From sequence record NZ_CP044080.1: 64,000 bases of DNA. One strand, given 5' to 3'. Shown one piece after another: positions 9,858 to 61,966 of the stretch; the first letter of the stretch is position 1; each line of letters starts with the position of its first letter. A program made the translations under genes and the position numbers. Origin of the DNA: a plasmid. The notes beneath the pieces were generated by a model, which saw only the letters and a program-made list of their open reading frames with translations, was not told where the DNA came from and searched no databases.

Positions 9858-10017
9858 CGGCGAATTCCTTTGGCTTGGGGCTGAACCGCCGGCGAACCGA
9901 CGGACAACCGCGCAACCCCTGTGTGAACCGCCTGTTCCCTGAAGCTATCAAATGTTTATCAGGTTTGCGTGACCCCCGGGATAGTCCCGAGGGTCGAGGG
10001 CAAGACTGTCCCGGACG

Positions 10018-11202
10018 TCAGGCGACTTCGGCAGGCGTCGGCGCGGGTTGTGCCGCCGCTGCAATGTCCTCGAGCCAAGCCACGGGCTTGAGGCCGGTAC
10101 CGCGCAGGAATTCGATGTAGCGGGCGCATTTCATGGCCCGGAAACGGTCGTATTCCGCGCCGTCGAACTTGACGAGCTGCTTGAGCCGCGCACGGGTCAG
10201 GGGCTGCTTGAGGTCCTGGGCCCGCAGATAGGGCACCCCGGTTTCGCGGCACATCTCTTCGGTGCGGGTGTCGATGGTGACGGTGCAGGCCATGCGTTCC
10301 GCCTGGATCGCCAACTGCGCCCCATGGAAGCGCGGGCCGATCAGCAGATCATGGCGGCGCAGCTCGTCCATCCAGGCAGCCACATCGTAATAGGATCGCG
10401 CATAGTTCCGCGCCCAGTCCTTGAACTGGTCGAGGGTGTAATGGGGGACGGTGTGGCGGTGGATGCGAGCCAGGGCATCGGGCTCGATCTCGTCGAACAA
10501 CCCGCGCGAGATCTTGATCATGTTGCCCATCGACTGGACGATGTAGACGCCGGGGAACTGCGGGTCCATCATCATGGCGATCAGCTGCTGCTCGATCTCA
10601 CGCGTGTCGCGCCAGCTTTCGTGCCCACCTGCGACGGTGATCCGCTGCGGCAGGGGGTTCGCCTCCCAGTTCGCCTGGATGCGGCGCCCCAGGTCGGGCC
10701 GGGGGTTGATGAAATGGGAAGGGCAGCCGTTCGCCAGAGTATCGGCGCCGGTCAGCTTCTTGATCTGTTCCGAGGTGTAGGGGCCCCGGGTATAGATGTT
10801 CTGGATGCCGTGCTTGCGCCCGTTCTCGATCAGAACGTCAAGCCAGGCGCGGGTGCCCTCGGTCAGCTCGACGTCTGCGCCGAACTCTGGTGCCTGCGCA
10901 CCAAGCCCGATGGCGACGATGGGCTTTTCGACCTGCGCCAAATTTTTGGCCAGCCCACCCAACTCAGTGTGCTTGCCAAGCTGGTTAGCGCCGGGAAAAA
11001 CAACGAAGTCGACGCGCTCGTTCAGAACCTCTCGCTTGGTATGCCAAGGGAAATACTCGATCTCGGCATCAATCTGGCTTTTGATAGCATGAACAAAAGC
11101 CAAGTTGCCGTTGTTGTGCCCGACTTGCCTGTAAAGGGTGTTGAAATTGGTGTTCGCGTAAAGCCCGCAGTTTTCGCTTTCCCACAAAAGGCCGATCTTC
11201 AT
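10018..11202 (-). CDS. Polysaccharide pyruvyl-transferase-like protein (tentative family assignment, 394 aa)
   Basis: ATG at 11202 with an AAGGAG RBS 8 nt upstream. The N-terminus MKIGLLW...NNGNLAFVHAI loosely resembles the CsaB/WcaK-type pyruvyl transferase N-termini. The 5-prime ~300 nt are only ~50-58% GC, against ~67% for the surrounding DNA. Confidence 0.4.
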   Translation of the reverse strand: MKIGLLWESENCGLYANTNFNTLYRQVGHNNGNLAFVHAIKSQIDAEIEYFPWHTKREVLNERVDFVVFPGANQLGKHTELGGLAKNLAQVEKPIVAIGLGAQAPEFGADVELTEGTRAWLDVLIENGRKHGIQNIYTRGPYTSEQIKKLTGADTLANGCPSHFINPRPDLGRRIQANWEANPLPQRITVAGGHESWRDTREIEQQLIAMMMDPQFPGVYIVQSMGNMIKISRGLFDEIEPDALARIHRHTVPHYTLDQFKDWARNYARSYYDVAAWMDELRRHDLLIGPRFHGAQLAIQAERMACTVTIDTRTEEMCRETGVPYLRAQDLKQPLTRARLKQLVKFDGAEYDRFRAMKCARYIEFLRGTGLKPVAWLEDIAAAAQPAPTPAEVA

Positions 11203-11302
11203 TCTCGCGTCTCCTTATAGATTGCGATCCGGGTTGCCGTGGCGCGCGTCGCCAGCGGTTGCTTTATTGTTTTGAATTGCCATCTCACCCGATTCCGGAC
11301 CT

Positions 11303-18690: not shown

Positions 18691-19269
18691 GGCTGATGAC
18701 CTTCAAAATCGGGTTTCAGACCCCTTTCGGGATCGACGGCTTGAATGTGTCGGCTGACAGACGCCCTCGCATTTCCGGCCATTTGCCAGCGCAATGCGAC
18801 GCGCTACTCGGTAATCTGGAACAAATTATCTTTTTCGACGTTTCGGCTATTTCCACGATCCGCTGCAAGGCTGATAGCGCCCTCAAAATGGTCCGTCAAC
18901 ACTGGTTAACGCAAGAATCCGCCGACATATTTGTGACATCGGTGCCTATTTCGCGTAGGAAAGATCATTATGTTTGCGCTGTTTGGAATATTGATTGGGT
19001 TAACGAAGCATATGTTCTTTTTGTCTGCGACCCTGCACCTCAATGGCGTGATCCCTGCGCGGGCAGTTGCTGCCCGAGGGTTCGGCACTGCCTGCCAGGT
19101 GCGCATCCCGCGTTAACGCGACAAGTCGGGCGCTCTGGCGACCTTTGCCAGAGCCGCCGCCCCGCCGAAACACCGGACAGCCGGGCTGTCACGCAAGCGT
19201 CGCGAAACCCGCGCCCCTGACCCGGCGTTCCCCCGGCTCAACGCGCGAGGCGCCAACCGGGGATCTGCC

Positions 19270-20079
19270 ATGGCCGAGAAAGTCGAACTGCACGTCGAGG
19301 ACAGCGGAGGTGCCGGGCGCCCCGTCATCCTGATTCACGGCTGGCCCCTGTCCGGGGCGGCATGGGAAAAGCAGGTGCCCGTCCTGCGCGACGCGGGCTT
19401 TCGTGTCCTGACTTACGACCGGCGCGGCTTTGGTCGGTCCTCGAAGCCCGCCACGGGCTATGATTACGATACACTGACCGCCGACCTGCATCAGGTGATT
19501 CTGGATCGCGACCTGCGCGACGTGACCATCGTCGGCTTTTCCATGGGCGGGGGCGAGGCCGCACGCTATATCCCGAACCACGGCGCGGATCGCGTCCACA
19601 GCCTCGTCTTTGCCGCCGCCGTGCCGCCCTATCTGATGCAGACCGACGACAACCCCGAAGGCCCGCTGACGCCCGAGCAGGCCAAGGCCATGGAGGACGC
19701 GCTGAAGGCGGACCGCGACACCTTCTTCGACAGCTTCACCCAGGATTTCTTCACCGCGAACGAAGAGCTGAAGGTTACCGAAAGCGACCGGCAAAAGGCC
19801 ATCGAACTGGCGCATCAGTCGTCCCAGGTCGCGGCGCTTGGCTGCATGAAGGCCTTCGGCACCACCGATTTCCGCGACGACCTGCGGCAGATCCAGGTGC
19901 CGGTGCTGGTGCTGCACGGCGACGCCGACGGCATCGTGCCGCTCGAGGGCTCGGGCCAACGCACGCACGAGGCGATCCCCGGCAGCGAGCTGGTGGTGAT
20001 CGAGGATGCGCCCCACGGCCTGAACGTCAGTCACCCCGACGAATTCAACGCGGCGCTGCTGGCGTTCCTGCGCCGCTGA
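19270..20079 (+). CDS. Non-heme haloperoxidase / arylesterase-type alpha/beta hydrolase (269 aa)
   Basis: ATG at 19270. VILIHGWPLSGAAWEKQ...GFSMGGGE...HGDAD...PHG matches the non-heme chloroperoxidase (CPO-L/CPO-T) family architecture with a Ser-Asp-His triad. Confidence 0.8.
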   Translation: MAEKVELHVEDSGGAGRPVILIHGWPLSGAAWEKQVPVLRDAGFRVLTYDRRGFGRSSKPATGYDYDTLTADLHQVILDRDLRDVTIVGFSMGGGEAARYIPNHGADRVHSLVFAAAVPPYLMQTDDNPEGPLTPEQAKAMEDALKADRDTFFDSFTQDFFTANEELKVTESDRQKAIELAHQSSQVAALGCMKAFGTTDFRDDLRQIQVPVLVLHGDADGIVPLEGSGQRTHEAIPGSELVVIEDAPHGLNVSHPDEFNAALLAFLRR

Positions 20080-21511
20080 GAAAGGCTGCCGCCAGCGCCA
20101 GGTCGTCCTTGAACTGGCGCGTGGCGACGGCGGCCTGCACGGCATCCGGCAAGCGCAGCAGATAGGCCGGATGCCACGTCGGCAGAATGGCCGGGCCCTG
20201 CCCCCGCTCGATGATCCGGCCGCGCAATTCGCCCATCTTGCCGCTGCGCCCGGTCAGGCCCAGCATGGCTGTCGCCCCCATGGCGACGATCAGGCGGGGG
20301 CGCACCATCCCGATTTCCTGCGTCAGCCACCAGCGGCAATGCGACACCTCGCCCGCGTCGGGTCTTTGGTGAATGCGCCGCTTGCCGCGCGGGGTGAACT
20401 TGAAGTGCTTGACCGCGTTCGTCAGATAGCTCCGGCTTCGGTCGATCCCGGCCCCGGCCAGCGCCAGGTCCAGCACCTGTCCCGCCGGGCCGACGAACGG
20501 CCGGCCGGCCAGATCCTCAAGATCGCCGGGCTGTTCGCCCACGATCATCAGGGCCGCATCCTGCGGCCCCTCGCCCGGCACTGCGCCCGTGGTCTGGGCG
20601 TGAAGCGTGCAGCGCGTGCAGCCCAGCACCCCCGCGCGCAAGCCCGGCCAGCCATCCGGCGCGGGGGGCTCGGCCGGCACCGCACGCCGGGCCCGGATGG
20701 CCGCGTGAAAGGCCGGCGGCACGCGATCCGCCTGCGCCTCCATCCGCGCTACGGCCTCGCCCGCCCCCGCGATCATCTGCGGGATCAGCGCGGCCTCGGG
20801 CAGGTTCTTCCAGTATTTGCGCGGCATTTCGGATTGCATGGCGCGAACCTTCAGCCGGGCGGGGTTGAAGATGGCCCCGAAATAAGTCCGCCACAGGTTT
20901 TCGGTCGGGTCCTCCAACGCAGGCTTTTCGGCGGGAACCTCGTCGGTCCGCAGCTGCCCATCGGCAAAGCCCGCGCGGCCGCGCGGCGTCAGGATCAGCC
21001 AGTCCATGTCGGCAAAGCGGCGCGCGAAAAAGGGCGCGGCACGGGCGACGATATGGTGGTCCGGCTCGAACCAGGCGACAAAGCTGCGCCGCCCGTCCGA
21101 GGGGATTTCCCGAAACCGCACAAAGGCGTGCATCTTGTGGACATCGCGCCGCACGGATTTCACCGCCCGATGCAGCCATTGCACATCGGGGTCGGGCGCG
21201 ACCTCCAGCAGATGCGGCTGATCCTGCAGGCGCCAGAGCAGGCGGTAGAGCATTGCAAACCGACAGGGGTCGCTGTGACACAGCGCGGCCTCCAGCAGGT
21301 CGGGAAAGCGACGCGGAACCCGCGCGGGAACCGCGCCGGCGCCTGGCCGCGGCAGCGCATCGCCGGCGCCGGCGCCGGCGCCGAACAGATCGCCCGCAGC
21401 CGCCACGCTCCAATCGACATCCCCGGGGGCCACGCCCGCCAGCACCAGCGCCCGTGCCGCGTCGCGCCATTCCCGCGCATCGGTCTGCGAGGACAGCGCG
21501 ACGCGCAGCAT
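20045..21511 (-). CDS. DUF4130 domain + family-4 uracil-DNA-glycosylase-like domain protein (the 'probable DNA metabolism protein' partner of the radical-SAM enzyme), 488 aa
   Basis: ATG at 21511 (MLRVALSSQTDAREW...). The C-terminal half is UDG family 4-like (GEGPQDAALMIVGEQPGDLEDLAGRPFVGPAGQVLD...HPAYLLR). The start overlaps the stop of the radical-SAM gene as ATGA. The 3-prime end overlaps the convergent haloperoxidase gene by 35 bp. Confidence 0.75.
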   Translation of the reverse strand: MLRVALSSQTDAREWRDAARALVLAGVAPGDVDWSVAAAGDLFGAGAGAGDALPRPGAGAVPARVPRRFPDLLEAALCHSDPCRFAMLYRLLWRLQDQPHLLEVAPDPDVQWLHRAVKSVRRDVHKMHAFVRFREIPSDGRRSFVAWFEPDHHIVARAAPFFARRFADMDWLILTPRGRAGFADGQLRTDEVPAEKPALEDPTENLWRTYFGAIFNPARLKVRAMQSEMPRKYWKNLPEAALIPQMIAGAGEAVARMEAQADRVPPAFHAAIRARRAVPAEPPAPDGWPGLRAGVLGCTRCTLHAQTTGAVPGEGPQDAALMIVGEQPGDLEDLAGRPFVGPAGQVLDLALAGAGIDRSRSYLTNAVKHFKFTPRGKRRIHQRPDAGEVSHCRWWLTQEIGMVRPRLIVAMGATAMLGLTGRSGKMGELRGRIIERGQGPAILPTWHPAYLLRLPDAVQAAVATRQFKDDLALAAAFLSGAGTPAAPR

Positions 21512-22737
21512 CACAGCAACGCAAGCTGCCGGGGCGGCGGCGCGAACAGCGTCCGCAGGTCGGCGCGGTCGATCAGCCGCAGGGGCGACCAGCCCGCGGC
21601 CGAGACGAACGGACGCAGCTTCTTCACCGAGACCCGCATCCGCCCCAGGTCGTCCAGCGTCAGGCTGCGGTGGCGGCGCGCGGCCAGGATGGCATCGACG
21701 GTCCTGGTGCCCAGCCCCGGCACCCGCAGCAGCATCTCGCGCGGGGCGCGGTTCACGTCGACGGGGAAATCCGCGCGATGCGCCAGCGCCCAGGCAAGCT
21801 TTGGGTCCAGGTCCAGGTCCAGCATCCCATCGGGCCGAGCCGAGGTGATCTCGTCGATGGAGAAGCCGTAAAAGCGGTACAGCCAGTCGGCCTGATACAG
21901 GCGGTGTTCGCGCATCAGCGGCGGCTTGGCGGGCGGCAGCCGGGTCGAGGCATCCGGGATCGGGCTGAACGCCGAATAATAGACCCGCTTCAGCCCATAG
22001 CTGCTGTAAAGCCGCGCGCTGGACCCCAGGATCGTCGAATCGCTCGCCCCGTCCGCGCCGACGATCATCTGCGTCGACTGGCCCGCCGGGGCAAAGCGCT
22101 TGCGCCGTCCGGTGTGGGTCGGCTCGGCCCCCGCCTCGATGCGCAGACGCAGGTCGCCCATGGCGCGGCGGATCTGGCCCGGCTGCTTTTCCGGCGCGAA
22201 GTCGGCAATGCCCGCATCTGTCGGCAGTTCGATGTTGATCGACAGCCGGTCGGCGTAAAGTCCCGCCTCGTCGATCAGTGCGCCCGAGGCCTCGGGGATG
22301 GTTTTCAGGTGGATATAGCCCTTGAACCCGTGCTTTTGCCGCAAGTCGCGGGCGATGCGCACCATCTGTTCCATCGTGTGATCGGGCGAGCGCGCGATCC
22401 CCGAGCTTAGGAACAGCCCCTCGATGTAGTTGCGGCGATAGAACTCCAGCACCAGCCAGACCACCTCGTCGGGGGTAAAGCGCGCCCGCGCCACATTGCT
22501 GGAACTGCGATTGATGCAATAGGCGCAATCATAGATGCAGAAATTCGTCAGCAGGATTTTCAGCAGCGAGATGCAGCGCCCGTCCGGCGCATAGGCATGG
22601 CAGATCCCCATCCCCTCGGTCGAGCCGATGCCACCTTGCCGCGCATCGCGCCGCTCGCTCCCGCTCGAGGCGCAAGAGGCGTCGTATTTGGCCGCGTCGG
22701 CCAGAATCGCCAGTCGCTGCTGCAGATCCCGTTTCAT
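21511..22737 (-). CDS. Putative DNA modification/repair radical SAM protein (408 aa)
   Basis: ATG at 22737. CxxxCxxC radical-SAM cluster motif (NFCIYDCAYCINR). Further downstream it has a helix-hairpin-helix-like region (LLRVPGLGTRTVDAILAARR). This is the conserved partner of the DUF4130/UDG-like gene. Confidence 0.8.
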   Translation of the reverse strand: MKRDLQQRLAILADAAKYDASCASSGSERRDARQGGIGSTEGMGICHAYAPDGRCISLLKILLTNFCIYDCAYCINRSSSNVARARFTPDEVVWLVLEFYRRNYIEGLFLSSGIARSPDHTMEQMVRIARDLRQKHGFKGYIHLKTIPEASGALIDEAGLYADRLSINIELPTDAGIADFAPEKQPGQIRRAMGDLRLRIEAGAEPTHTGRRKRFAPAGQSTQMIVGADGASDSTILGSSARLYSSYGLKRVYYSAFSPIPDASTRLPPAKPPLMREHRLYQADWLYRFYGFSIDEITSARPDGMLDLDLDPKLAWALAHRADFPVDVNRAPREMLLRVPGLGTRTVDAILAARRHRSLTLDDLGRMRVSVKKLRPFVSAAGWSPLRLIDRADLRTLFAPPPRQLALL

Positions 22738-22741
22738 ACAT

Positions 22742-22756
22742 GTTCTATAAATGTTC
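22742..22756. promoter_or_regulatory. Putative alphaproteobacterial LexA (SOS) box, GTTCN7GTTC
   Basis: The plus-strand sequence GTTCTATAAATGTTC is a perfect direct repeat GTTC-N7-GTTC, 5 nt from the radical-SAM ATG. Confidence 0.5.
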
Positions 22757-22916
22757 TGGCGCCTGCGATCAACCGTCTTTCAGAATCTGGACCGGGCAGT
22801 TCAAATGCCACGCAGTCGGGCCTTGAGCAGGGCGATGGGTTATTATATCAATACCGACGCGCTCTGTTTCACCGTCGTCCGTTCTCCCGTCCCCGGCGCA
22901 AGCGACCCGTGGAGAG

Positions 22917-23567
22917 ATGATGACCCAACAGGACAGGGCCCCGGCCGACCGGGCCCATGACCCAGCCAGCGGCACGGCCTTTGCCCATGCCATCGAGGCG
23001 GCAGGCCGGCTTGCCGCGCAGGATGGCAACATTCCCTCGCTGGACCGGATCGCCGCCGACCTCGGGATGGAGACCGCTGCGCTTCTGGCCGTGGTCGGCT
23101 CCGAAGATCAGCTTCATCGGGCCATCGCGCAGAACGCCTTCGTGCTGCTGAACGACCAACTGGTGCGCAAGGTCGTCCAGGTGGGCGAATCCGACGTCTT
23201 GGGCCAGTTCGAGGCGATTGCCGATGCCTATGTCGAATGGGCCTGCGACCATCCCGCCGCCTTCCACATCATTGCCATGATGCCGGCCAGGGAGTTCAGC
23301 CAGGACGCGGGGCTGGCCCGGTATGAACAGTCCATCCACGATCTGATGCTGCGGCTGCTGCGCCAGGCGCAGGCCCTGGACCTGCTCGCCCCCGACGAGG
23401 ATCTCGAGATGCTGGTCGCCCTTGCCCATGTCTGCGCCTATGGCGCGGCCAGCCGGATGCTGTCCGGCGATCTGCAGCGCTGGCTGCCCGATCACGACGC
23501 CCGCACCGGCGCGCGCAAGGCGATGTCGGTCTTCACCCGCAAGGTCCTGCGGCCTCCGGCCCCCTAG
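22917..23567 (+). CDS. TetR/AcrR-like transcriptional regulator (216 aa)
   Basis: ATG at 22917 or 22920, preceded by GGAGAG. The N-terminal region PSLDRIAADLGMETAALLAVVGSEDQL resembles a TetR HTH. The family call is moderately supported. Confidence 0.5.
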   Translation: MMTQQDRAPADRAHDPASGTAFAHAIEAAGRLAAQDGNIPSLDRIAADLGMETAALLAVVGSEDQLHRAIAQNAFVLLNDQLVRKVVQVGESDVLGQFEAIADAYVEWACDHPAAFHIIAMMPAREFSQDAGLARYEQSIHDLMLRLLRQAQALDLLAPDEDLEMLVALAHVCAYGAASRMLSGDLQRWLPDHDARTGARKAMSVFTRKVLRPPAP

Positions 23568-23571
23568 GCGC

Positions 23572-24369
23572 TCACCTCATCATGTGCTCGACCTCCGGCG
23601 CGGCGACGAAGCGCCAGGCCCTTTTCGGTCCTGCCATGACGTTGAGGTAGTAGAGTTCGAAGCCATGGGGGGCGCCGCAGGGGTGATGGCCGCGCGGCAC
23701 CAGGGCGACGTCGCCGTCCCTGACCGCCATCACCTCGTCCAGGGACCCGTCGTCGGTATAGACGCGCTGCACCGCCCAGCCGTCCCTCGGGTTCAGGCGG
23801 TGGTAGTAGGTCTCCTCCAGATAGGTGATGCGGGGGAAATCGTCCTCGTCATGGCGGTGGCTCGGATAGGACGACCAGTTGCCCGCGGGGGTGAAGACCT
23901 CGGTCACCAGCAGGCTGTCGCAGACATCCTCCGCCTCCATGGCGATGTTGTTGATGAAGCGGGTGTTCGGCCCCTCGCCGCGCTGGGTCAGGCTGATGCC
24001 GTCCGGTCCGATGCGGCGCGCGGCATGCCCGCCCGTGCCGGGGGCCGAGCAGACCGCGATCACGCAGTCGGTCCGGGCCTCGGCGCGCCAGTCCTGGCCG
24101 GGGGGCACATACAGGCAATGCGGCGGCGTCCTCTCGAAGACATCCATGCGGTCCCCCAAGACGCCCCAGTCCTGCCCCGCGGCATGGACACCGGCCTTGC
24201 CCTCGACCATGACCAGGATGACCTCGCGCCCGCCGGTCGCCTCGGCCGCAACCTCGCCCACCCGCAACCGGTAAAGCGAAAAGCCGACATAGCGCCAGCC
24301 TGCCGATTGTGGGGTGATCTCGTGCACCTTGCCGTGGCTGCCGAAGGGTCTGCGCAACAGCGTGTTCAT
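23572..24369 (-). CDS. iolB: 5-deoxy-glucuronate isomerase IolB
   Basis: ATG at 24369 with a GAGGAAGGA RBS. The cupin-type IolB sequence (...FTPAGNWSSYPSHRHD...YYHRL...) is typical. Confidence 0.85.
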   Translation of the reverse strand: MNTLLRRPFGSHGKVHEITPQSAGWRYVGFSLYRLRVGEVAAEATGGREVILVMVEGKAGVHAAGQDWGVLGDRMDVFERTPPHCLYVPPGQDWRAEARTDCVIAVCSAPGTGGHAARRIGPDGISLTQRGEGPNTRFINNIAMEAEDVCDSLLVTEVFTPAGNWSSYPSHRHDEDDFPRITYLEETYYHRLNPRDGWAVQRVYTDDGSLDEVMAVRDGDVALVPRGHHPCGAPHGFELYYLNVMAGPKRAWRFVAAPEVEHMMR

Positions 24370-24392
24370 CGTCCGGTCCTTCCTCGTTGTCG

Positions 24393-24453
24393 AAATACCC
24401 CGGAGGGGAGGCGCCGCGCATCGCGCGATGCCGTGGGGAGGCAGCGCCTCCCC
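24393..24453. repeat. REP-like intergenic element, copy A: AAATACCCCGG followed by a G-rich hairpin GGGGAGGC-AGC-GCCTCCCC and the nested palindrome GCATCGCGCGATGC
   Basis: The same module, AAATACCCCGG plus a GGGGRGGCAGCGCCYCCCC stem-loop, recurs at 27313..27348. Both copies sit in short intercistronic gaps of the iol operon. Confidence 0.35.
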
Positions 24454-24487
24454 GCCCGCCGCGGACGCGGCGCAAGCATCGCGGCCC

Positions 24488-25399
24488 TCAGGCGGCCACG
24501 GTCTGGTCCAGCCCGGCCTCGCGCGCCGCGGCCTTCAGCGCCTTCAGGCCCATCGACTGATACTCCAGCGGGTTGCGCAGATCGGGGTCCTGCTCGGCCT
24601 CGATCACCAGCCAGCCGTCATAGCCCGCCCCGGCCAGGATCCGCAGCAGGGGCACGAAGTCGATGGCCCCTTCGGGATCGCCCGGCACGGTAAAGGCCCC
24701 GGCCAGGACGCCCTGCAGGAACGACAGCCCCTCGGCCCGCACCCGCGCCGTCACCGCGGGGCGGATGTTCTTGGCATGGAAATGCGCGACCCGGGACGCG
24801 TGGCGCGCCAGCACCGCCGCGGGGTCGCCGCCGCCGAAGGTGCAATGGCCGGCGTCGAACAGCAGATGCGTGGCCGGGCCGGTCGCGGCCATGAAGGCGT
24901 CGATCTCCTCGGGGCTTTCCACCACGGTGCCCATGTGGTGGTGATAGGCGAGCCGGATCCCCTGCCCCGCCAGATAGGCCGCAAAGGCCTCGACCTTCGC
25001 GCCGAAGTCCGCCATCTCGGCCGCGGTCAGCCGCGGCCGGTCGTTCACCGCCACATCGGGACGCCCGTGCACCGTGTTCGAACATTCGCAGGCGATGCAG
25101 ACCGTGCAGCCATTGGCCTTGAGCTTGGCCAAATGCCCCTGCACGGCGGCGATCTCCTCCTCGACCGAGCGGGTCAGCAATTCCGTCGAATACCAGCCCG
25201 AGACGAAGACCAGCCCATAGCGGCCCAAGAGCGCCTTGAGCGCCTGCGGGTCGTCGGGCCAGCGATGGCCGTTCTCGATGCCGTCGAAGCCGATGACCTC
25301 GCCCGCCTCGTGCAGGATCTGTTCGGTCGGGATATGGGCGCCGATCGACGGATCGTCGTCATTGGCCCAGGCGATGGGATTGGTGCCATAGCGGATCAT
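24488..25399 (-). CDS. iolE: Myo-inosose-2 dehydratase IolE (xylose-isomerase-like TIM barrel)
   Basis: ATG at 25399 with an [21 protein letters not shown]... The upstream in-frame extension in the ORF track (24488..26119) is junk. Confidence 0.85.
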
Positions 25400-32257: not shown

Positions 32258-33154
32258 TCATTTCCAGTATTTTGCGACGTAGTCTTTGGTTTGCTTCAGG
32301 ACGGACCTTGCGCTGTCCTCGGCGCGGTCTTCCCAGGCGAAGACGCAGTTCGACAGCACGCCGTCGAAGTTCATGTCGGCGAGGGTCGCGAAGAACGTGT
32401 CCCAGTCGATCTCGCCCTGGCCCAGGTCCAGGTGCTGGTGCACGCGCACCTTCGCGCCCGGCGGGTTGACGATATAGCGCAGCTGCGACGACTTGGTGTG
32501 GTCGTAGGTGTCGGCCAGCCGGACGTGTTCCAGAAGGCCTTCCGTCGCGCGCAGGTTCGCCACCATGTCGGGGCCGTAGAAGAACGTGTGCGGCGCGATG
32601 AAGGACGCCCGCACCATGGGCGAGTTGATCGTCCGGATGATATCCATCGCCGGGGCGATTTCCTCCAGCCAGTCCTCGGGGTGGGCCTCCAGCGACAGCT
32701 TGATGCCCTCGCGCTCCAGGATCGGGACCAGCACATCCATGGCGCGAAAGAAGGCGCCCTCGCAGGTCTCGGGCCGGTGCAGGCCCGAGCGGTCGTTCAG
32801 GCTGCGGTCGGGGCTGCCGCCGCGGCCGAATTCGCTGACGAACAGCGGGCATTCCAGCTCGACCGCGAACTCGATGGCGCGCTTCCAGTTGTCGATCGCC
32901 ACCTCCCATTCATCAGGGTATGGGCTGGCCCAGCGATACATCGGCTGCAGCGAGGCCAGGCCCACGTTGTTGTCACGCAGCGCGCGTTTGAAGCTCTTGA
33001 TGCGCTCGGGGTAAAGCTTGGGGCGCGTCCACCAGGACAGGAAGTCGGGGCGCGGCGACATCTCGATATGGTCATAGCCAAGCTCGGCCACCTTGCGGAC
33101 GGTATCCTCCAGCGACAGGTGGCGGATCATGTGCGGGTCAAGCGTGTGTTTCAT
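32258..33154 (-). CDS. Sugar phosphate isomerase/epimerase (TIM barrel, IolH-like)
   Basis: ATG at 33154 ([32 protein letters not shown]...). The ORF track starts at a TTG at 33190. Confidence 0.65.
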
Positions 33155-33238
33155 GGGGATTGCTCTGGTTTTCTGGACAAGCGGGGACAACCCGGTGGCC
33201 CGGCTGCTGCGGTGACGGGACGCGCGCGGGGGTGCGCG

Positions 33239-34255
33239 TCAGCTTTTCCTGCGTTTTTTCTGCCTGTAGGTGTCGGCGACGACGGCGGCGACGATGATGA
33301 CGCCCTTGATCATCTCCTGGTAATAGGCGTCGAGCCTGAGGAAGGTGAACCCCGAGATGATGACCCCGAAGATCACCATGCCGATGGCCGTCCCCAGGAT
33401 CGAGCCGCGCCCGCCGTTCAGCGACACGCCCCCGATCACCGCCATGGCGATGGCGTCCAGTTCATAGGCAAGGCCCATGCCGGCCTGCGCGGTCTGGCCG
33501 CGGGCGGCGACCACCATGCCCGCCAGCGCCGCCAGCATCGCCGCGATGACATAGACCTTGACCAGGTGGCGTTCGACATTGATGCCCGAGACGCGCGCGG
33601 CCTGCGCATTGGCGCCGATGGCATAGGTGAACTTGCCGTAGCGGGTGTATTTCATGGCGACGTGGAAGATCAGCGCCACGGCGATGAAGATCACCACCGG
33701 CATCATGCCCTTGCCGATGGCGGCAAAGCCCTCGGTCGGAAAGCTGATCGGCTGGCCCTTGGTGTACCACTTGGCAAAGCCGCGCACCGTGACCATGGTG
33801 CCCAGCGTCGCAATGAAGGGCGGGATCCTGGTATAGGCGATCAGCCAGCCGTTGATGAGGCCGACGACCGCCCCGCAGCCCAGCCCGATCAGGATCGGCA
33901 CGATGGCCGGCAGGTCGGTCAGCCCGGGATAGATCGCGCGGGCATAGCTCGATGCCTGGGCGAACGACATCGCGACCATCGCCACCGCCCCCACCACGGA
34001 GCCCGACGACAGGTCGATCCCGCCCGAGATGATGACCTGCGTCACGCCGACCGCGATGATGCCGATGACCGAGACCTGCAGGATCATGATCTTGACCCGG
34101 TTCAGCGAGAACAGGAACGACTGCCCCTGAAAGACCCAGCCCAGGATCTCGAAGACCAGCGCGATGCCCACCAGGACGATCAGGATGTTGACCTCGGCGG
34201 GCAGGCGGCGGTGGGACCGCGCGCGGGCGGGCACGGTAACGTCTTGGGTGCTCAT
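33239..34255 (-). CDS. Sugar (inositol) ABC transporter permease, RbsC-like
   Basis: ATG at 34255. Multi-pass hydrophobic protein with the typical ribose-type permease organisation. Confidence 0.8.
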   Translation of the reverse strand: MSTQDVTVPARARSHRRLPAEVNILIVLVGIALVFEILGWVFQGQSFLFSLNRVKIMILQVSVIGIIAVGVTQVIISGGIDLSSGSVVGAVAMVAMSFAQASSYARAIYPGLTDLPAIVPILIGLGCGAVVGLINGWLIAYTRIPPFIATLGTMVTVRGFAKWYTKGQPISFPTEGFAAIGKGMMPVVIFIAVALIFHVAMKYTRYGKFTYAIGANAQAARVSGINVERHLVKVYVIAAMLAALAGMVVAARGQTAQAGMGLAYELDAIAMAVIGGVSLNGGRGSILGTAIGMVIFGVIISGFTFLRLDAYYQEMIKGVIIVAAVVADTYRQKKRRKS

Positions 34256-43086: not shown

Positions 43087-44091
43087 ATGACACCCCGAGA
43101 CCGTATCCGCCTGCCGCTGGTCCTGGCCCTTGGCGCCATTCTGGCCCCGCTCGCGGGCCATGCCCAGACCGCGCCCGAGACGTCCTTTCCCGTCACCGTC
43201 CGCCACGCCCTGGGCACGACCACCATCCCGGCCAGGCCGCAGCGCATCGCCACCGTCGCTTGGGCCAACCAGGAGGTGCCGCTGGCCCTGGGCATCGTGC
43301 CCGTGGGCATGGCACGCGCGAATTTCGGCGATGACGACGGCGACGGGGTGCTGCCCTGGGTCGCGGCCCGGCTCAAGGAGCTGGGGGCCGAGACCCCGGT
43401 GCTGTTCGACGAGGGCGACGGCATCGACTTCGAGGCGGTGGCCGCCACCCGCCCGGACGTGATCCTGGCCGCCCATTCCGGGCTGACCCGGGCCGATTAC
43501 GAAACGCTCAGCCAGATCGCGCCGGTGGTGGCCTATCCCGACCAGCCCTGGACGACCGGATGGCGCGACATGATCCGGCTGGACAGCGCCGGCATGGGCA
43601 TGGCGGCCGAGGGCGAGGCGCTGATCCGCCGGCTCGAGGGGCAGATCGCCGACACCGTCGCCCGCCGTCCCGGCCTTGCCGGCAAGTCGGCGATGTTCGT
43701 CACGCATCTGGACACCACGAACCTCAGCCTCGTCAGCTTCTACACCACGCATGACACGCGGGTGCAGTTCTTTCACGACCTGGGCCTGACCTCGCCCAGC
43801 AGCGTGGTCGAGGCATCGGCCGACGGGCTTTACGCCGGCCAGATCAGCGCCGAGCGCATCGACGCCTTCGAGGACGTGGACATCGTCGTGACCTATGGCG
43901 GGCGCGCCCTGTTCGACGCCGTCAAGGCCGATCCCCTGCTGTCGCACATGCCGGCCGTGGCGCGCGACGCGCTGGTGCTTCTGGGCAACGACCCGGTCGG
44001 CACGGCGGCCAGCCCGACGCCGCTGTCGATCCCCTGGGTGCTGGACGATTACGTCGCCCGGCTGGCCGAAGCGGCCGCCCGAACCGAATGA
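43087..44091 (+). CDS. Iron-siderophore ABC transporter substrate-binding protein (FecB/FhuD-like)
   Basis: ATG at 43087 with GAAGGAG 6 nt upstream. An alternative ATG is at 43057. Signal peptide MTPRDRIRLPLVLALGAILAPLAGHAQ. Confidence 0.8.
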   Translation: MTPRDRIRLPLVLALGAILAPLAGHAQTAPETSFPVTVRHALGTTTIPARPQRIATVAWANQEVPLALGIVPVGMARANFGDDDGDGVLPWVAARLKELGAETPVLFDEGDGIDFEAVAATRPDVILAAHSGLTRADYETLSQIAPVVAYPDQPWTTGWRDMIRLDSAGMGMAAEGEALIRRLEGQIADTVARRPGLAGKSAMFVTHLDTTNLSLVSFYTTHDTRVQFFHDLGLTSPSSVVEASADGLYAGQISAERIDAFEDVDIVVTYGGRALFDAVKADPLLSHMPAVARDALVLLGNDPVGTAASPTPLSIPWVLDDYVARLAEAAARTE

Positions 44092-45095
44092 CCGGGCCCG
44101 CCGCCCTGCCCCGCCGGGGGCTGGCGCTGCTGGCGCTGGCGCTGGCGGTCGTGGCGCTTTGCGCGCTGTCGGTCGCCGTCGGCACCCGCAGCGTCCCCTG
44201 GTCCGAGATCCTGGGCGCCCTGTCCGGCCGCACGGATACGATCGGAGAGGCCGCCGTCGCCGCCCGCCTGCCCCGCACCGCGCTGGCGCTGCTGGCCGGG
44301 GCGGCGCTGGGGATGGCGGGGGCGCTGTTGCAGGGCATCACCCGCAACCCGCTGGCGGACCCCGGCATCCTTGGGATCAACATGGGCGCCGCGCTGGCCG
44401 TGGTGGTGGGCGTGGCGTGGTTTTCCATGACCTCGGCCCTGGCCTATATCGGGGCGGCGGTGCTGGGCGCCGGGCTGACGGCGGTCTTTGTCCAGGTCAT
44501 CGGCTCGCTCGGACGCGGCGGGGCGACGCCGCTCAAGCTCGCGCTTGCGGGGGCCGCGACCTCGGTCGCCTTCTCGTCCCTGGTGATCGCGGTCGTGCTG
44601 CCGCGCAACGACATCGCCGGCGGCATCCAGTCCTGGCAGATCGGCGGCGTCGGCGGGGCGACATTCGCCCGCATCCTGCCGGTGCTGCCCATGCTGGCGG
44701 CGGGCCTGGCCATCGGCCTGATCTGGGCGCGGCGGCTGAACGCGCTGGCTCTGGGGGACGAGCTGGCGGCGGGCCTGGGCGAAAACGTCCTGCGCACGCG
44801 GCTGGTGGCGGGCCTTGCGGCGGTGCTGCTGGCGGGGGCCGCCACGGCCGTCTGCGGGCCCATCGGCTTTGTCGGCCTGGTCGTGCCGCACCTCTGCCGG
44901 CTGCTGGTCGGGACCGACCACCGCTGGCTTCTGCCCTTCTCGGCGCTGGCCGGGGCGGCGCTGCTGCTGGTCTCGGACGTCGCCGGCCGCCTCGTCGCCC
45001 GGCCCGGAGAGCTGGACGTGGGCATCGTCACCGCCTTTGTCGGCGCGCCCTTCTTCATCTGGATCGTCCGCCGGCAAAGGCTGCGCGAGCTATGA
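44088..45095 (+). CDS. Iron-chelate ABC transporter permease (FecCD family)
   Basis: ATG at 44088 overlaps the SBP stop as ATGA. Hydrophobic FecCD-type permease. Confidence 0.8.
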   Translation: MTGPAALPRRGLALLALALAVVALCALSVAVGTRSVPWSEILGALSGRTDTIGEAAVAARLPRTALALLAGAALGMAGALLQGITRNPLADPGILGINMGAALAVVVGVAWFSMTSALAYIGAAVLGAGLTAVFVQVIGSLGRGGATPLKLALAGAATSVAFSSLVIAVVLPRNDIAGGIQSWQIGGVGGATFARILPVLPMLAAGLAIGLIWARRLNALALGDELAAGLGENVLRTRLVAGLAAVLLAGAATAVCGPIGFVGLVVPHLCRLLVGTDHRWLLPFSALAGAALLLVSDVAGRLVARPGELDVGIVTAFVGAPFFIWIVRRQRLREL

Positions 45096-46118
45096 CCGCG
45101 ACTCTCGACACCGTCCGCGCGGCCCGCAGCCTGCGCCACCGCCGCCGCTCGCGCGGGCTGGCGGTCATGGCGGGGCTGATCCTCGCGGGCCTTGCCCTGA
45201 CGCTGAGCCTTGGCCAAAGCCTGACGCCCCCCGGCGACGTCTTGCGCGTGCTGATGGGCCAGGACGTGCCCGGCGCCAGCTTCACCGTGGGCCAGCTGCG
45301 GCTGCCGCGCGCGGTGCTGTCGATCCTGGCCGGGCTCTGCTTCGGCATGGGGGGCGCCGCGTTCCAGGTCATGCTGCGCAACCCGCTGGCCAGTCCCGAC
45401 ATCATCGGCATCACCTGGGGCGCCAGCGCCGCGGCGGTGCTGGCCATCGTCGTTCTGGGCATGACCGGACCGGGCGTCGCCGTGTTGGCGGTCGCGGCGG
45501 GCCTGGGCGTCGCGCTGGCGATCTATGGCCTGGCCTGGCGGGGCGGCGTCGCCGGCACCCGGCTGATCCTGATCGGCATCGGCACCGCCGCCATGCTGCA
45601 GAGCGTCGTCGCCTATGCCCTGGCCCGCGCGCCCGCCTGGGACCTGCAACAGGCCATGCGCTGGCTGACCGGCAGCGTCAACGGCGCGCAACTGTCCCAG
45701 GCCGCGCCGCTGGCGCTGACGCTTGCGCTGGCCGGGGGGGTGCTTCTGGCGCGCGCCCGCGACCTGGAAACGCTGCGCATGGGCGACGACACCGCCGCCG
45801 CGCTTGGCGTGCGGGTCGGGGCGACGCGCGTCGCCGTCACCCTGGCGGCGGTCGGGCTGATCGCCGTCGCCACCGCCTTCACCGGGCCCATCGCCTTCGT
45901 CGCCTTCCTGTCGGGCCCCATCGCGGCGCGGGTCATGGGCCGGACCGGCTCGATCCTGCTGCCGGCAGGGCTGGTCGGCGCGCTGCTGGTGCTGGCGGGC
46001 GACTATTGCGGCCAGTTTCTGATGCCCGGCCGCTATCCGGTCGGCGTCGTCACCGGGGCGCTGGGGGCGCCCTATCTGATCTATCTCATCATCCGGGTGA
46101 ACCGGAGCGGAGGCTCGT

Positions 46119-54195: not shown

Positions 54196-54978
54196 ATGGC
54201 GGACGTGCAGGACAGACCGGCGGATCGCTACCGCGCGCCCGCGCTCGACAAGGGGCTCGATATCCTCGAGGTGCTGGCCGACCAGCCCGGCGGCCTGACC
54301 CGGGCCGAGATCGTCAAGGCTCTGGGCGTCAGCCCGTCGCAGATCTACCGGATGCTGGAACGGCTGGTCGCGCGCACCTATGTCACCCGGCTGGACGGCG
54401 GCGACCGCTATGCGCTGACGATGAAGCTGTTCCTGCTCGCCAACGGCTATCCGCCGCTGCGCCGGCTGGTGGCGCAGGCCCAGCCGATGATGGACGCGTT
54501 TTCCCGCGAATTGCGCCAGTCCTGCCACCTGGTCGTGCCGGAAAACGGCTGCGGCATCGTCGTGGCCCAGGCCAGCCCCGTCGATCACTGGGAATTCCGC
54601 GCCCGGGTCGGCGCGCGGCTCGACCTGTTCCAGACCAGTTCGGGTCTGACGCTGCTGGCCTTCCAGGACCCCGCCCGGCGGGCCGAGACGCTGGGCCAAT
54701 GGGGCATCGCCGAGGCCGAGGCCGCCGTCGGCGCCATCGCGGACGACCTTGCCCGCATCCGCCGCAGCGGCCACCGCGTCGGCCCCTCGGGCCAGGCGGT
54801 GGGCGTCACCGACCTCAGCGTACCGCTGCTGGGACCGCGCGGCGACGCCATGGCGGTGCTGACCTGCGCCTTCATCGAGCATCCGGGCGATCCCCCCGCC
54901 GGGCTGCGCGAGGCGGCGCTGGCGCGCCTGGCCGAGGTCGCGCGCGCCCTGTCGACCGACCCCGCGCGCCCCGCCTAG
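54196..54978 (+). CDS. IclR-family transcriptional regulator, divergent from the sugar-acid operon
   Basis: ATG at 54196 with an AAAGGA RBS. N-terminal wHTH (LDKGLDILEVLADQPGGLTRAEIVKALGVSPSQIYRMLERL) and a C-terminal effector domain. Confidence 0.8.
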   Translation: MADVQDRPADRYRAPALDKGLDILEVLADQPGGLTRAEIVKALGVSPSQIYRMLERLVARTYVTRLDGGDRYALTMKLFLLANGYPPLRRLVAQAQPMMDAFSRELRQSCHLVVPENGCGIVVAQASPVDHWEFRARVGARLDLFQTSSGLTLLAFQDPARRAETLGQWGIAEAEAAVGAIADDLARIRRSGHRVGPSGQAVGVTDLSVPLLGPRGDAMAVLTCAFIEHPGDPPAGLREAALARLAEVARALSTDPARPA

Positions 54979-58807: not shown

Positions 58808-60829
58808 CATGTGGCCCTTGCAGGCTGTCTCGGACCGCCGCCGATCCGCCACGGGCTGACGCAGGACACCGGCGGCGCGCTGGCCTATGTCCTGGGCGCG
58901 GCCGAGGCGCAGGCCCTGCGTTCCGACACCGAGGCCGTGGACATCGTCACCCGGCGCTTCGACGACCCCGCGCTGGGGGCGGACCATGACCTGCCGATGC
59001 AGCAGCTGGGCCCGCGGCTGCGCATCATCCGCATCGCCTCGGCCTCGCGCGGCTATCTGGCCCAGCCCGATCTTGGCCCCGAGCTGCCGGATCTCGCGCT
59101 GGCCTTTCTGGGGCTCTTGTCGATGCTGCCGCGCCGGCCGGACCTGATCCACTGCCACGGCGCCGAGGCCATGGTGCTGGGCCGGGCGGCGCGGGCGCGC
59201 CACCGCATGCCGCTGCTTTATACCCCCCATGCGCACAGCCTCAGGGCGCGGCTCGACGCACCCCCGCCGCAGGCGCTGCGCGACCAGCTGGCCCGCGAAC
59301 GCACCGCCCTGCGCGAGGCCGACGCCATCATCGCCTCGACCCGGGACGAGGCCGAGCGCCAGATCGCCGCCTATGACCCGCTGGCAGCCGGGCGGGTCTG
59401 GCGCATCAACCCCGGCGTCGCGCTGCCCCGGCCGCGCGGCGACGCCCGCGCGCTGCTGGCCACGCTCGACCGGCCCGAGGCGCCGTTTCTTCTGGCCATC
59501 GCCCGGCCGGTGCGGCAGAAAAACCTGATGGGGCTGCTGGACGCCTATATCGCGTCGCCCGCGCTGCAGGCGCGCGCCAACCTGGTGATCCTGGCCGGCC
59601 AGCCGGGGGGCGAGGCCGAGCAGCGCGCGATCCGCCGTGAACTGACGCTGCGGGCCGCGTCGGCGGGGCTCGGGGGCAAGGTGCTGATGCCGCACAGCCA
59701 CGACCCGGGCATCGTGCCGCTGCTTTACGCGCGCTGCGCGATCCAGCGCGGCGTCCTGGTGAACCCCGCGCTGCACGAATCCCTTGGACTGACGCTGATC
59801 GAGGCGGCCCGTTTTGGCCTGCCGGTCGTCGCCACCCGCAACGGCGGCCCGCAAGCCATCCTCGACCGCATCGGCCACGGGCTGGCGGTCGATCCCGCCC
59901 GGCCCCGCGCCATCGCCGCCGCCTGCCTGCGGCTGGTGCGCGACGCGGGCCTGTGGCGGCGGCTGTCGCAGAACGCCCGCAACGGCCAGGGACAGTTCAG
60001 CTGGGACCGCTGGGCCGAGCGCGTCGCGACCATCGCCGCACGGCTCCTCTCGCCCCGCGCGCCGTTCCGGCCCGACCCCCTGCCCCGCACGATCCTGGCC
60101 TTCGACCTCGACGCGACGCTCACCGGCTGCCCGGTCGGCGCGCTCCGCTTCTCGGACTGGGCGCGGGGCGCGGGCGGGCGCGGCCAGCGCATCGTGCTGA
60201 CCACCGACGCCCCCGTGTCCGAGGCGCGCGGCCAGCTTGCCGACTGGTCCCTGCCCGAGCCGCAGGTCCTCATCACCTCGCTCGGGTCCGAGATCTGGCG
60301 CCCGCACCATCGCGGCGCCCTGCGCCTGTGCATCGACTATGCCGCCTGGCTCACCGAGGGCTGGCACCGCGCCGCCGTCCGCGAGGCGATCGAGGCGCTG
60401 GGGCTCGACTGGCGCGCGGCCCACGAACAGCGCGCCTGGCGGTTGGCGCTGGCAGGCACCCCCGCCGACGCCGCCCGCGTGACCGCCGCCCTGGGCGCGC
60501 AGGGCCTTCAGGCCCGCGTCATCGCCTCGGGCGCGGGGACCATCGACGTGCTGCCCCGCCGCGCCGGCAAGCCCGAGGCCCTGGCCTTCGAGGCGCGCCG
60601 CCTGGGCCTGTCGCTGGCCGATTGCGTGGCGGCGGGCGACGGCGCGCGCGACACTGCCCTGCTGGCGGCGGCGGGCCGCGCCATCCTGGTCGGCGCCAGC
60701 GCACCCGCCCTGCCCGACCGCCCCGGGCTTTACCGCGCCCGCGCCGCCCACGGCGTCGGCGTGGTCGAGGGTCTGGCGCATTTCGACCTGGGCGCCGCCG
60801 CCCAGCCCCGGGGCATCCCCGCGGAATGA
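58808..60829 (+). CDS. Sucrose-phosphate-synthase-like bifunctional protein: GT4 glycosyltransferase domain plus C-terminal HAD phosphatase domain
   Basis: ATG at 58808 (MYVMHVALAGCLGPPPIRHG...). The central segment HESLGLTLIEAARFGLPVVATRNGGPQAIL is GT4-like. The C-terminal ILAFDLDATLTG carries the HAD DxDxT motif. Confidence 0.75.
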   Translation, partial: HVALAGCLGPPPIRHGLTQDTGGALAYVLGAAEAQALRSDTEAVDIVTRRFDDPALGADHDLPMQQLGPRLRIIRIASASRGYLAQPDLGPELPDLALAFLGLLSMLPRRPDLIHCHGAEAMVLGRAARARHRMPLLYTPHAHSLRARLDAPPPQALRDQLARERTALREADAIIASTRDEAERQIAAYDPLAAGRVWRINPGVALPRPRGDARALLATLDRPEAPFLLAIARPVRQKNLMGLLDAYIASPALQARANLVILAGQPGGEAEQRAIRRELTLRAASAGLGGKVLMPHSHDPGIVPLLYARCAIQRGVLVNPALHESLGLTLIEAARFGLPVVATRNGGPQAILDRIGHGLAVDPARPRAIAAACLRLVRDAGLWRRLSQNARNGQGQFSWDRWAERVATIAARLLSPRAPFRPDPLPRTILAFDLDATLTGCPVGALRFSDWARGAGGRGQRIVLTTDAPVSEARGQLADWSLPEPQVLITSLGSEIWRPHHRGALRLCIDYAAWLTEGWHRAAVREAIEALGLDWRAAHEQRAWRLALAGTPADAARVTAALGAQGLQARVIASGAGTIDVLPRRAGKPEALAFEARRLGLSLADCVAAGDGARDTALLAAAGRAILVGASAPALPDRPGLYRARAAHGVGVVEGLAHFDLGAAAQPRGIPAE

Positions 60830-60877
60830 TCGCGCCCCGCGCCCTTTCGCTTCATCCGCCGGCCAAGGCCGCCTGAC

Positions 60878-61954
60878 ATGCGCATCGCCCTGCTCGCGCC
60901 CCTGCGCCACCCGATCAGGCCCCCCTTCATGGGCGGGCTCGAGGCGCATTGCTGGCATCTCGCACGCGGGCTCAAGGCGCGCGGCCACCAGGTCACGCTG
61001 TTCGCCTCGGGCGACAGCGACGTGGGCGTGCCGGTCTTTCCCGTGCTGCGCCGCCACGCCCGGGCGGATTTTCCCGACCCCGCGCGCCAGGGCGGCGCCC
61101 ATCTGGCCGCGATCCTCGACGCCGCGATGCAGCGCGCCTGCGACCGGATCGCGCAGGGCGGCTTCGACGTGGTCCATGACGCCAGCCAGCACCCCCGCCC
61201 GCTGGCGCTGGCGGCGCGCGGCCAGCCCTGCGTCACCGCGCTGCACGGGCCCCCGGCCCCGGCGCTGCAGCGCGCGACCCTGGACCAGCCCGGCGCGCGC
61301 TTCACCTTGCCCTCGGAACACCAGCGCAGGGTCTGGTGGTCCGGCGCGGCGCCCGCGCGGGTGGCGGTCGTTCACCCCGGAATCGACCCCGGGCGCTGGC
61401 CGTTCTCGCCCCTGGGCAACGGCACCCTGGTCTGGTCCGGCCGCATACGGCCCGAAAAGGGGCCGCAGCTCGCCGCCCAGACCGCCGCCCGGCTGGGCAT
61501 GCCGCTGACGCTTTACGGCATGGTCGAGGACCGGGCCTGGTTCGACGGCGCCGTGCGTCCCTTCCTGGGCGGGCGCATCCGCTATGGCGGGCATCTGGGG
61601 CAGGACGATCTGGCCCGCGCGCTCGGCGCGGCCTCGGTGCTGCTGTTCACCCCGGTGGGCGACGAACCCTTCGGCCGCGCCGCGGTCGAGGCCATGGCCA
61701 CGGGCCTGCCGGTGGCAAGCTTCGATCAGGGGGCGGCGCGCGAGGTGATCGGCGATGCCGGCGCCTTCGCGGCCGATCCCCTGCCGCAGGCGCTGGCCCC
61801 CGCCATCCGCCAGGCGCTGGCGATCCCCCGCGACCGGCCGCGCAACCGGGTCGAGCGCCTGTTCACCCTTTCGGGGATGCTTCAGGGCTACGAGGCGCAA
61901 TACCGCGCGGCCATCGCAGACCGGGCCGGCGCCGCCCCGCCCCTCGCGCGCTGA
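60878..61954 (+). CDS. Glycosyltransferase family 4
   Basis: ATG at 60878. MRIALLAPLRHPIRPPFMGGLEAHCWHLARGLKARGHQVTLFA... and a C-terminal motif EPFGRAAVEAMATGLPV. Confidence 0.7.
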   Translation: MRIALLAPLRHPIRPPFMGGLEAHCWHLARGLKARGHQVTLFASGDSDVGVPVFPVLRRHARADFPDPARQGGAHLAAILDAAMQRACDRIAQGGFDVVHDASQHPRPLALAARGQPCVTALHGPPAPALQRATLDQPGARFTLPSEHQRRVWWSGAAPARVAVVHPGIDPGRWPFSPLGNGTLVWSGRIRPEKGPQLAAQTAARLGMPLTLYGMVEDRAWFDGAVRPFLGGRIRYGGHLGQDDLARALGAASVLLFTPVGDEPFGRAAVEAMATGLPVASFDQGAAREVIGDAGAFAADPLPQALAPAIRQALAIPRDRPRNRVERLFTLSGMLQGYEAQYRAAIADRAGAAPPLAR

Positions 61955-61966
61955 ACCGCCCCTGCC

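Follow-up and report, generated by a model that had tools for sequence, protein, structure and literature searches.

A probable, widely conserved LexA operator in front of the radical-SAM/DUF4130-UdgX operon of a Paracoccus yeei-type plasmid

Does the direct repeat that lies immediately in front of a radical-SAM gene on a Paracoccus yeei-type plasmid (NZ_CP044080.1) place this gene, together with the DUF4130-containing gene behind it, under the control of LexA? We examined this question in a stretch of 64,000 nucleotides (nt) of the plasmid, hereafter called the window. The initial annotation had proposed that an exact GTTC-N7-GTTC repeat at 22742-22756, the operator pattern of alphaproteobacterial LexA, puts the two genes in the SOS regulon. 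The repeat is indeed read on the plus strand as an exact match, and the elements concerned are the following:

22742-22756, minus strand: predicted core LexA operator, GAAC-ATTTATA-GAAC on the coding strand and GTTC-N7-GTTC on the plus strand
22740-22757, minus strand: predicted extended operator, two 7-nt direct repeats ATGTTCT on the plus strand (22740-22746 and 22751-22757)
21511-22737, minus strand: gene 1, radical-SAM protein of the TIGR03916 family (561.6 bits, cut-off 343.5; also PF04055)
20045-21511, minus strand: gene 2, by profile matches a fusion protein of 488 amino acids with an N-terminal DUF4130/TIGR03915 part and a C-terminal, predicted UdgX-type domain

The core reads GTTCTATAAATGTTC on the plus strand and GAACATTTATAGAAC on the coding (minus) strand, and its context around box and start codon is ...GGTTGATCGCAGGCGCCAGAACATTTATAGAACATGTATGAAACGG... 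on the coding strand. It is placed in an intergenic region of 179 nt, on the promoter side of the radical-SAM gene. Four bases (ATGT) follow the box and precede the ATG, the A of which is nucleotide 22737 of the minus strand; the distance of 5 nt first given for this interval thus holds as a difference of coordinates and not as a gap. The repeat unit of 7 nt is longer than the GTTC core and recurs with a period of 11 bp. No other meaningful repeats or palindromes came out of a repeat search of the intergenic region. The copy on the P. yeei plasmid carries an identical box.

In 479 kb of related alphaproteobacterial DNA the exact pattern occurs at a background of 1.9e-5 per nt, which gives about 0.003 expected occurrences in the 179-nt intergenic region. 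The site was scored with an independent matrix, built from 31 Caulobacter crescentus LexA boxes under chromatin immunoprecipitation (ChIP) peaks (S6 Table, PMC12700426) with the box of the orthologous operon left out. It obtained 21.2 bits, more than any other 15-mer on either strand of the 64 kb; second came 10756-10770 with 16.3 bits, which lies within a coding open reading frame. The score of the window site exceeds that of 18 of the 31 real Caulobacter boxes, which range from 14.9 to 26.5 bits with a median of 20.3. None of 100 Markov-1 random windows reached it, the top random score being 20.7 bits.

Orthologous upstream regions were scanned for the motif, as the initial annotation had suggested, in 80 loci, one genome per species, with proteins 65-80% identical to that of the window. 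All belong to Alphaproteobacteria and they cover at least six orders (Rhizobiales, Rhodobacterales, Caulobacterales, Rhodospirillales, Acetobacteraceae, Sphingomonadales and Hyphomonadaceae being represented). An exact GAAC-N7-GAAC or GTTC-N7-GTTC box was present near the gene start (-80 to +15) in 78 of the 80 loci, and one-mismatch boxes (GAAT) were found in the other two (L004 and L070). Altogether 80 boxes occurred in 7,600 nt of start-proximal DNA, for an expectation of 0.14; the rest of these loci, 479 kb in total, held 9, which makes an enrichment of about 560-fold.

These boxes resemble that of the window in several respects. GAAC stands on the coding strand in 72 of the 78 loci, and likewise in the window; among the 73 GAAC-oriented sites (these 72 loci and the window) the gap from box end to start codon is 2-6 nt in 58, compared with 4 nt in the window. 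The ortholog consensus reads ttg-N12-GAACATAtnaTGAACAnATG. The extended half-site GAACAT is conserved, with A at box position 4 in 65/72 and T at position 5 in 61/72. Across the 78 loci the GAAC cores are invariant while the spacer varies (ATATAGT, ATATCAT, ATCAAGG, GAAATAA and others), as expected of a protein-binding repeat and not of a bare -10 element. The DUF4130 gene lies directly downstream in all 80 loci and a uracil-DNA glycosylase (UDG)-type domain is encoded in 68; the box is kept also where this domain is absent, for example in L002, L006, L009 and L039. The Paracoccus denitrificans ortholog reads GAACATATCATGAAC.

In two Betaproteobacteria the element is replaced. In Caballeronia sp. 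Lep1P3 (at -29) and Burkholderia sp. THE68 (at -23), whose proteins share 59% identity with that of the window, the radical-SAM gene is preceded by TACTGTATAAACATACAGTA, a perfect CTGT-N8-ACAG palindrome and thus the LexA motif of Beta- and Gammaproteobacteria, and the alpha-type box is absent from both loci. That LexA control would persist although its operator has been exchanged entirely speaks strongly for a functional regulation. Upstream of an Acinetobacter homolog none of three LexA motifs (alpha, beta/gamma and Gram-positive) was detected. Within the two betaproteobacterial loci the boxes occupy about 1969-1988 (L084) and 1976-1995 (L085).

LexA regulation of this operon has already been published (PMC8565304, PMC4951493, PMC12700426), so that the regulatory handle hoped for by the initial annotation was in fact known. 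The Caulobacter operon CC_2332-CC_2333 is listed as LexA-regulated in PMC8565304, citing da Rocha 2008, and control by LexA, reported in 2008, was re-measured in 2014 and 2025. According to the binding and induction data in the supplements of PMC12700426 and PMC4211646, CCNA_02417 is among the ‘genes with LexA-bound promoter’, with a ChIP peak of 787 rpm and assignment to the ‘early’ SOS class; a distance of 7 bp separates its box, GTTCTTGATTTGTTC, from the coding sequence of a transcription unit of 2669 bp. Expression of CCNA_02417 and CCNA_02418 increased by 1.0-1.1 log2 units at 20 min and by 1.8-2.2 at 40 min, and both were induced by mitomycin C in the wild type and not in a recA mutant.

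The Caulobacter operon (CC_2332-CC_2333, i.e. CCNA_02417-CCNA_02418) shares with that of the window the operator type, its location a few bp from the coding sequence and the unit length of about 2.7 kb. Its genes are annotated as a ‘biotin synthase related domain’ protein and a type-4 uracil-DNA glycosylase, and one source gives the name ‘biotin synthase’ to a 78%-identical homolog of the window radical-SAM protein; the probable orthology of CC_2332 to gene 1 is accordingly drawn from these annotations. The two operons differ in lineage (Caulobacterales versus Rhodobacterales) and in spacer, and the window copy lies on plasmid-like DNA. More generally, the operator described in Rhodobacter sphaeroides, Paracoccus denitrificans, Sinorhizobium and Caulobacter has the same GTTC direct repeat with a 7-nt spacer in the promoter region, and a T before the second GTTC is common to the window site and most Caulobacter boxes. 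We found no sequence difference between the window site and this operator; its spacer is unusually AT-rich and probably doubles as a -10 element.

The gene pair has been reported under LexA beyond this class. Reviews of the Erill group count the operon among those regulated by LexA in Alphaproteobacteria, Verrucomicrobia and Bacteroidetes, and Erill et al. 2016 names the TIGR03916/TIGR03915 operon explicitly. In Verrucomicrobia and Bacteroidetes the same pair (COG4277-COG1573), with predicted LexA control, was read as an SOS-linked base-excision system; the operators there are wholly different motifs, matching the LexA of each clade.

Taken together, GTTCTATAAATGTTC is very probably a functional LexA operator of the radical-SAM/DUF4130-UdgX operon, and we infer that LexA would bind it in a P. 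yeei-like host. Placement of the operon in the SOS regulon is supported by the 78 of 80 orthologous promoters, by the independent Caulobacter matrix and by the betaproteobacterial replacement with CTGT-N8-ACAG. The operon is a further, orthologous instance of a published LexA-regulated operon, to which it adds the Paracoccus case. What is added here is only the breadth of conservation (78/80 genomes), the tight spacing of operator and start, the exchange of operator in Betaproteobacteria, the location on a plasmid and the assignment of the UdgX type.

How would LexA act at a site so close to the start codon? Two promoter elements can be proposed for the coding strand:

22767-22772, minus strand: predicted -35 hexamer TTGATC, at -16 from the box start
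22744-22749, minus strand: predicted -10 hexamer TATAGA, inside the operator, 17 nt after TTGATC and 6 nt before the ATG

Of the 73 GAAC-oriented sites, 45 have a TTG[A/C/T] element 16-19 nt ahead of the box start, compared with such an element at about 10% of random positions, a background counted anywhere in the wider range of -22 to -12. Since this element keeps a steady distance, the -10 hexamer would fall inside the spacer of the box, where orthologous spacers read TATAGT or TATCAT in place of the TATAGA of the window. No Shine-Dalgarno or purine-rich ribosome-binding sequence was found between box and ATG. From the position of the box over the -10 and the lack of a ribosome-binding site we infer promoter occlusion and a leaderless or near-leaderless transcript. 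This architecture, with the operator overlapping the -10, appears somewhat more probable than not; promoter and leaderless start are held tentatively, because the strict geometry TTG-N16-18-TAnnnT is found in just 30 of the 73 sites, the window included.

The proposed mechanism would then be as follows. In an undamaged cell a dimer of LexA, the gene of which would lie elsewhere in the genome, would occupy the two ATGTTC half-sites, one helical turn apart, and would cover the predicted -10 (22744-22749) and the transcription start, excluding RNA polymerase. After DNA damage, RecA filaments on single-stranded DNA would stimulate the self-cleavage of LexA and set the promoter free, and both genes would be transcribed in one messenger RNA of about 2.7 kb. 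This messenger would most likely be leaderless or nearly so, given an operator-ATG gap of 4 nt and a -10 that ends 6 nt before the ATG, and translation of gene 2 would be coupled to that of gene 1 through the overlap of stop and start codons described below.

A different placement was seen in Asaia and Swaminathania (L048 and L078), where the box is reversed (GTTCTTGACTTGTTC and GTTCTTGACTCGTTC) and located at about -39 from the gene start. Its spacer holds a TTGAC -35-like element, so that at these two loci the -35, instead of the -10, appears to be covered by the operator.

Several observations weigh against the LexA operator and its proposed promoter, and are gathered here. In the 64-kb window as a whole the exact pattern is found three times, compared with 1.19 expected, and 17 of 100 shuffles gave three or more, so that its mere occurrence is not significant. 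A matrix derived from the orthologs also placed the window site on top, with 27.2 bits against 9.6 for the next independent match; this matrix is not independent and partly picks up -10 signals. Neither lexA nor recA was detected in the window (tblastn with the Escherichia coli proteins), and an alpha-type LexA in the host rests on the genus. As for the promoter, a strict sigma-70 scan of 19900-23000 returned none, TATAGA having A and not T at position 6, and in TTGATC-17-TATAGA each hexamer has 4 of the 6 consensus bases, beside the limited share of strict geometry given above.

The negative promoter scan at the box, together with other AT-rich stretches in the 179-nt intergenic region such as 22840-22853, leaves room for a variant in which LexA does bind and the promoter lies further upstream. 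The box would then stand in the 5′ leader, acting as a roadblock or within a normal leader, or would mainly regulate the divergent TetR-like gene (22917-23567). The spacing of 2-6 nt between box and start in 58 of the 73 sites and the constant distance of the TTG element fit a promoter overlapped by the box, and a leader of this kind would have to do without a Shine-Dalgarno sequence between box and ATG. As to the TetR-like gene, the box is 160 nt from its start codon and this neighbour is not conserved. We consider such an arrangement unlikely, although it deserves more weight than the two alternatives that follow.

Another regulator could recognize the site, either the TetR-like protein or a factor with affinity for a similar direct repeat. 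A TetR-family gene is found 180 nt away on the opposite strand, and control of neighbouring genes by a local regulator is common. The operators of TetR proteins are typically palindromes, which counts against a TetR-like regulator here. Furthermore, a TetR-like gene is present beside none of the 80 orthologous loci while the box is present in 78, and we therefore rejected this neighbour as the cognate regulator. The site also fits a matrix made from LexA ChIP peaks, and induction of the Caulobacter ortholog depends on recA. Control by a protein other than LexA is, on these grounds, very improbable. The least credible proposal, that of a chance match in an AT-rich promoter whose conserved sequence is nothing else than the -10/start region without repressor function, can draw on the three matches against 1.19 expected in the window and on the -10-like TATAGA/TATAGT in the spacer, and is dismissed since the GAAC cores and not the spacer are constant across 78 loci, since a -10 element needs no flanking GAAC tetramers 11 bp apart, since betaproteobacterial orthologs swap the whole element for a CTGT-N8-ACAG palindrome and since the Caulobacter ortholog is on the list of LexA-bound promoters.

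Other box-like sites of the window were considered as LexA operators and rejected: two of them, at 54627 and 10756, fall within coding open reading frames, and the high-scoring site at 11258 lacks both GTTC cores. A second exact GTTC-N7-GTTC at 9883 is intergenic and was rejected because of its GC-rich spacer and low matrix score (below 10.8 bits and outside the top 12 of the Caulobacter-matrix scan). This box (minus strand, GTTCGCCGGCGGTTC) precedes by 25 nt the GTG start (9857) of a gene for a sugar-phosphate nucleotidyltransferase and, within 9883-9930, is part of a CGGTT[C/G] series at 9930, 9910, 9899 and 9888, with spacings of 20, 11 and 11 nt. It may be the site of another regulator or a chance occurrence.

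We then come to the proteins whose expression LexA would control. The radical-SAM identity of the first gene, proposed initially, is well borne out by the TIGR03916 score listed above, and no other NCBIfam model matched. Its CxxxCxxC cluster motif is CIYDCAYC at residues 67-74, with C67, C71 and C74 invariant in the homolog alignment. In an alignment with 13 homologs the match begins at residue 1, with a nearly invariant M1; the real start is thus the ATG at 22737, as the next in-frame Met would lose invariant residues, and RefSeq annotates the same start in P. yeei. The closest named homologs are from Paracoccus (86-89% identity), and no sequence relative of the protein was found among solved structures.

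The second gene had been described as DUF4130 plus a family-4 UDG-like domain. The DUF4130/UDG-type fusion stands, and the assignment to family 4 does not: the C-terminal domain is, judging by its profile and motifs, of the UdgX type and not a generic family-4 glycosylase. The protein matches TIGR03915 (203 bits), TIGR03914 (‘UdgX family uracil-DNA binding protein’, 292.7 bits, cut-off 189.95), PF13566 and PF03167, while the general family-4 model TIGR00758 gave 124.9, just under its cut-off of 125.3. Best matches among solved structures are those of Mycobacterium smegmatis UdgX (6IOD, 6AJO and 6AIL; E ~5e-43), to which 185 C-terminal residues of gene 2 align. These structure chains of 205-229 residues cover only residues 291-475 of the 488. 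GEQPG (motif A), GKRRIH (R-loop) and WHPAYLLR (motif B, HPA) align with 6IOD, so that the three motifs are shared; the loop before KRRIH is two residues shorter in gene 2.

UdgX excises uracil and then forms a covalent bond with the abasic site thus created, its defining motifs being GEQPG, KRRIH and HPS/A (PMC4787834, PMC10359453). Given the conserved His of KRRIH, the product of gene 2 may form the same covalent cross-link to uracil-containing DNA. The pair was called functionally uncharacterised by the initial annotation; this applies to the radical-SAM and DUF4130 parts and not to UdgX, the biochemistry of which (covalent cross-linking to uracil-DNA) is known. For the former parts, a 2026 preprint predicts that radical-SAM and DUF4130 proteins form a complex and that this complex binds single-stranded nucleic acid, and an earlier comparative study listed DUF4130 as a predicted mutagenesis-related enzyme. 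The discoverers of UdgX proposed that its cross-link is resolved via a RecA-dependent route, which fits SOS co-regulation and does not explain it.

A radical-SAM protein of another kind is also LexA-regulated in many clades, the SplB-type ‘photolyase’ (COG1533). It belongs to a family different from that of the TIGR03916 protein of the window and the two should not be merged. CCNA_01391, an SOS gene of Caulobacter annotated as ‘Radical SAM superfamily protein’, may be the SplB-type example in that organism.

The junction of the two genes reads ...CTG TGA TG..., the TGA stop and the ATG sharing one base (TGATG); the ATGA overlap noted at first is not what the junction shows. A GTG start of gene 2, if used instead, would give a GTGA overlap; RefSeq annotates the 1-nt overlap of TGA and ATG in a near-identical P. 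yeei plasmid. At its 3′ end gene 2 shares 35 nt (20045-20079) with a convergent alpha/beta-hydrolase gene (19270-20079), and the operon thus consists of two genes. A terminator scan of 19900-23000 found a single terminator-like site, on the wrong strand and inside gene 1, and none for gene 2 or the hydrolase gene.

Positions 19000-25000 are 97.7-97.8% identical to three P. yeei plasmids of 156-328 kb, typed as non-mobilizable, and positions 1-48276 are co-linear, at about 98% identity, with plasmid unnamed1 of P. yeei FDAARGOS_252 (NZ_CP020441.2, 296 kb, typed non-mobilizable). This co-linearity places the SOS-regulated operon on an extrachromosomal replicon. The radical-SAM gene is found in 163 plasmid records, mostly of Rhodobacterales (Phaeobacter 58, Paracoccus 14, Leisingera 10). 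In the window the operon has as neighbours a polysaccharide-synthesis cluster on one side and inositol-catabolism (iol) genes on the other, and further repair genes are absent from the vicinity. At about 33154-33241 the window is missing some 1.1 kb of the P. yeei reference plasmid (33172-34281), which in the reference holds the gene of a ‘substrate-binding domain-containing protein’ in a sugar ABC-transporter cluster. Composition departs from the rest at 44001-46000 (AT skew -0.26 to -0.34) and at 59001-62000 (GC 0.75-0.78, compared with a window mean of 0.69).

On the far side of the intergenic region, the divergent TetR-like gene may have its promoter or operator in the AT-rich stretch TTATTATATCAATA (22840-22853), which precedes it by about 65 nt. 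This stretch is overlapped by a NiCo riboswitch match (22772-22867) from an Rfam scan of 22500-23100, which was rejected as chance (19.6 bits against a gathering score of 37, E = 0.1). Being the sole Rfam match and below threshold, it leaves an RNA element in this region unsupported.

The analysis gives a firm and testable regulatory assignment for two genes of a P. yeei-type plasmid, and broad comparative support for a radical-SAM/DUF4130/UdgX module that acts in the DNA-damage response. It is not aimed at the chemistry of the radical-SAM and DUF4130 proteins, nor at the reason why a self-cross-linking uracil-binding domain should be induced by damage. A wider reading may be offered with more reserve, as one that we find possible and rather less probable than its opposite: the operon would be among the most strictly conserved SOS members under LexA across phyla, its operator being replaced by clade, with the alphaproteobacterial operator fused to the -10 and leaderless start 2-6 nt from the start codon, and in Paracoccus and many roseobacters it would be carried by plasmids or chromid-like replicons. 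If this is true, an extrachromosomal repair function would answer to a LexA whose gene lies elsewhere in the genome, and the protein that cross-links to uracil/abasic DNA would have, with its radical-SAM partner, a damage-specific job, for example the marking or processing of lesions from SOS translesion synthesis.

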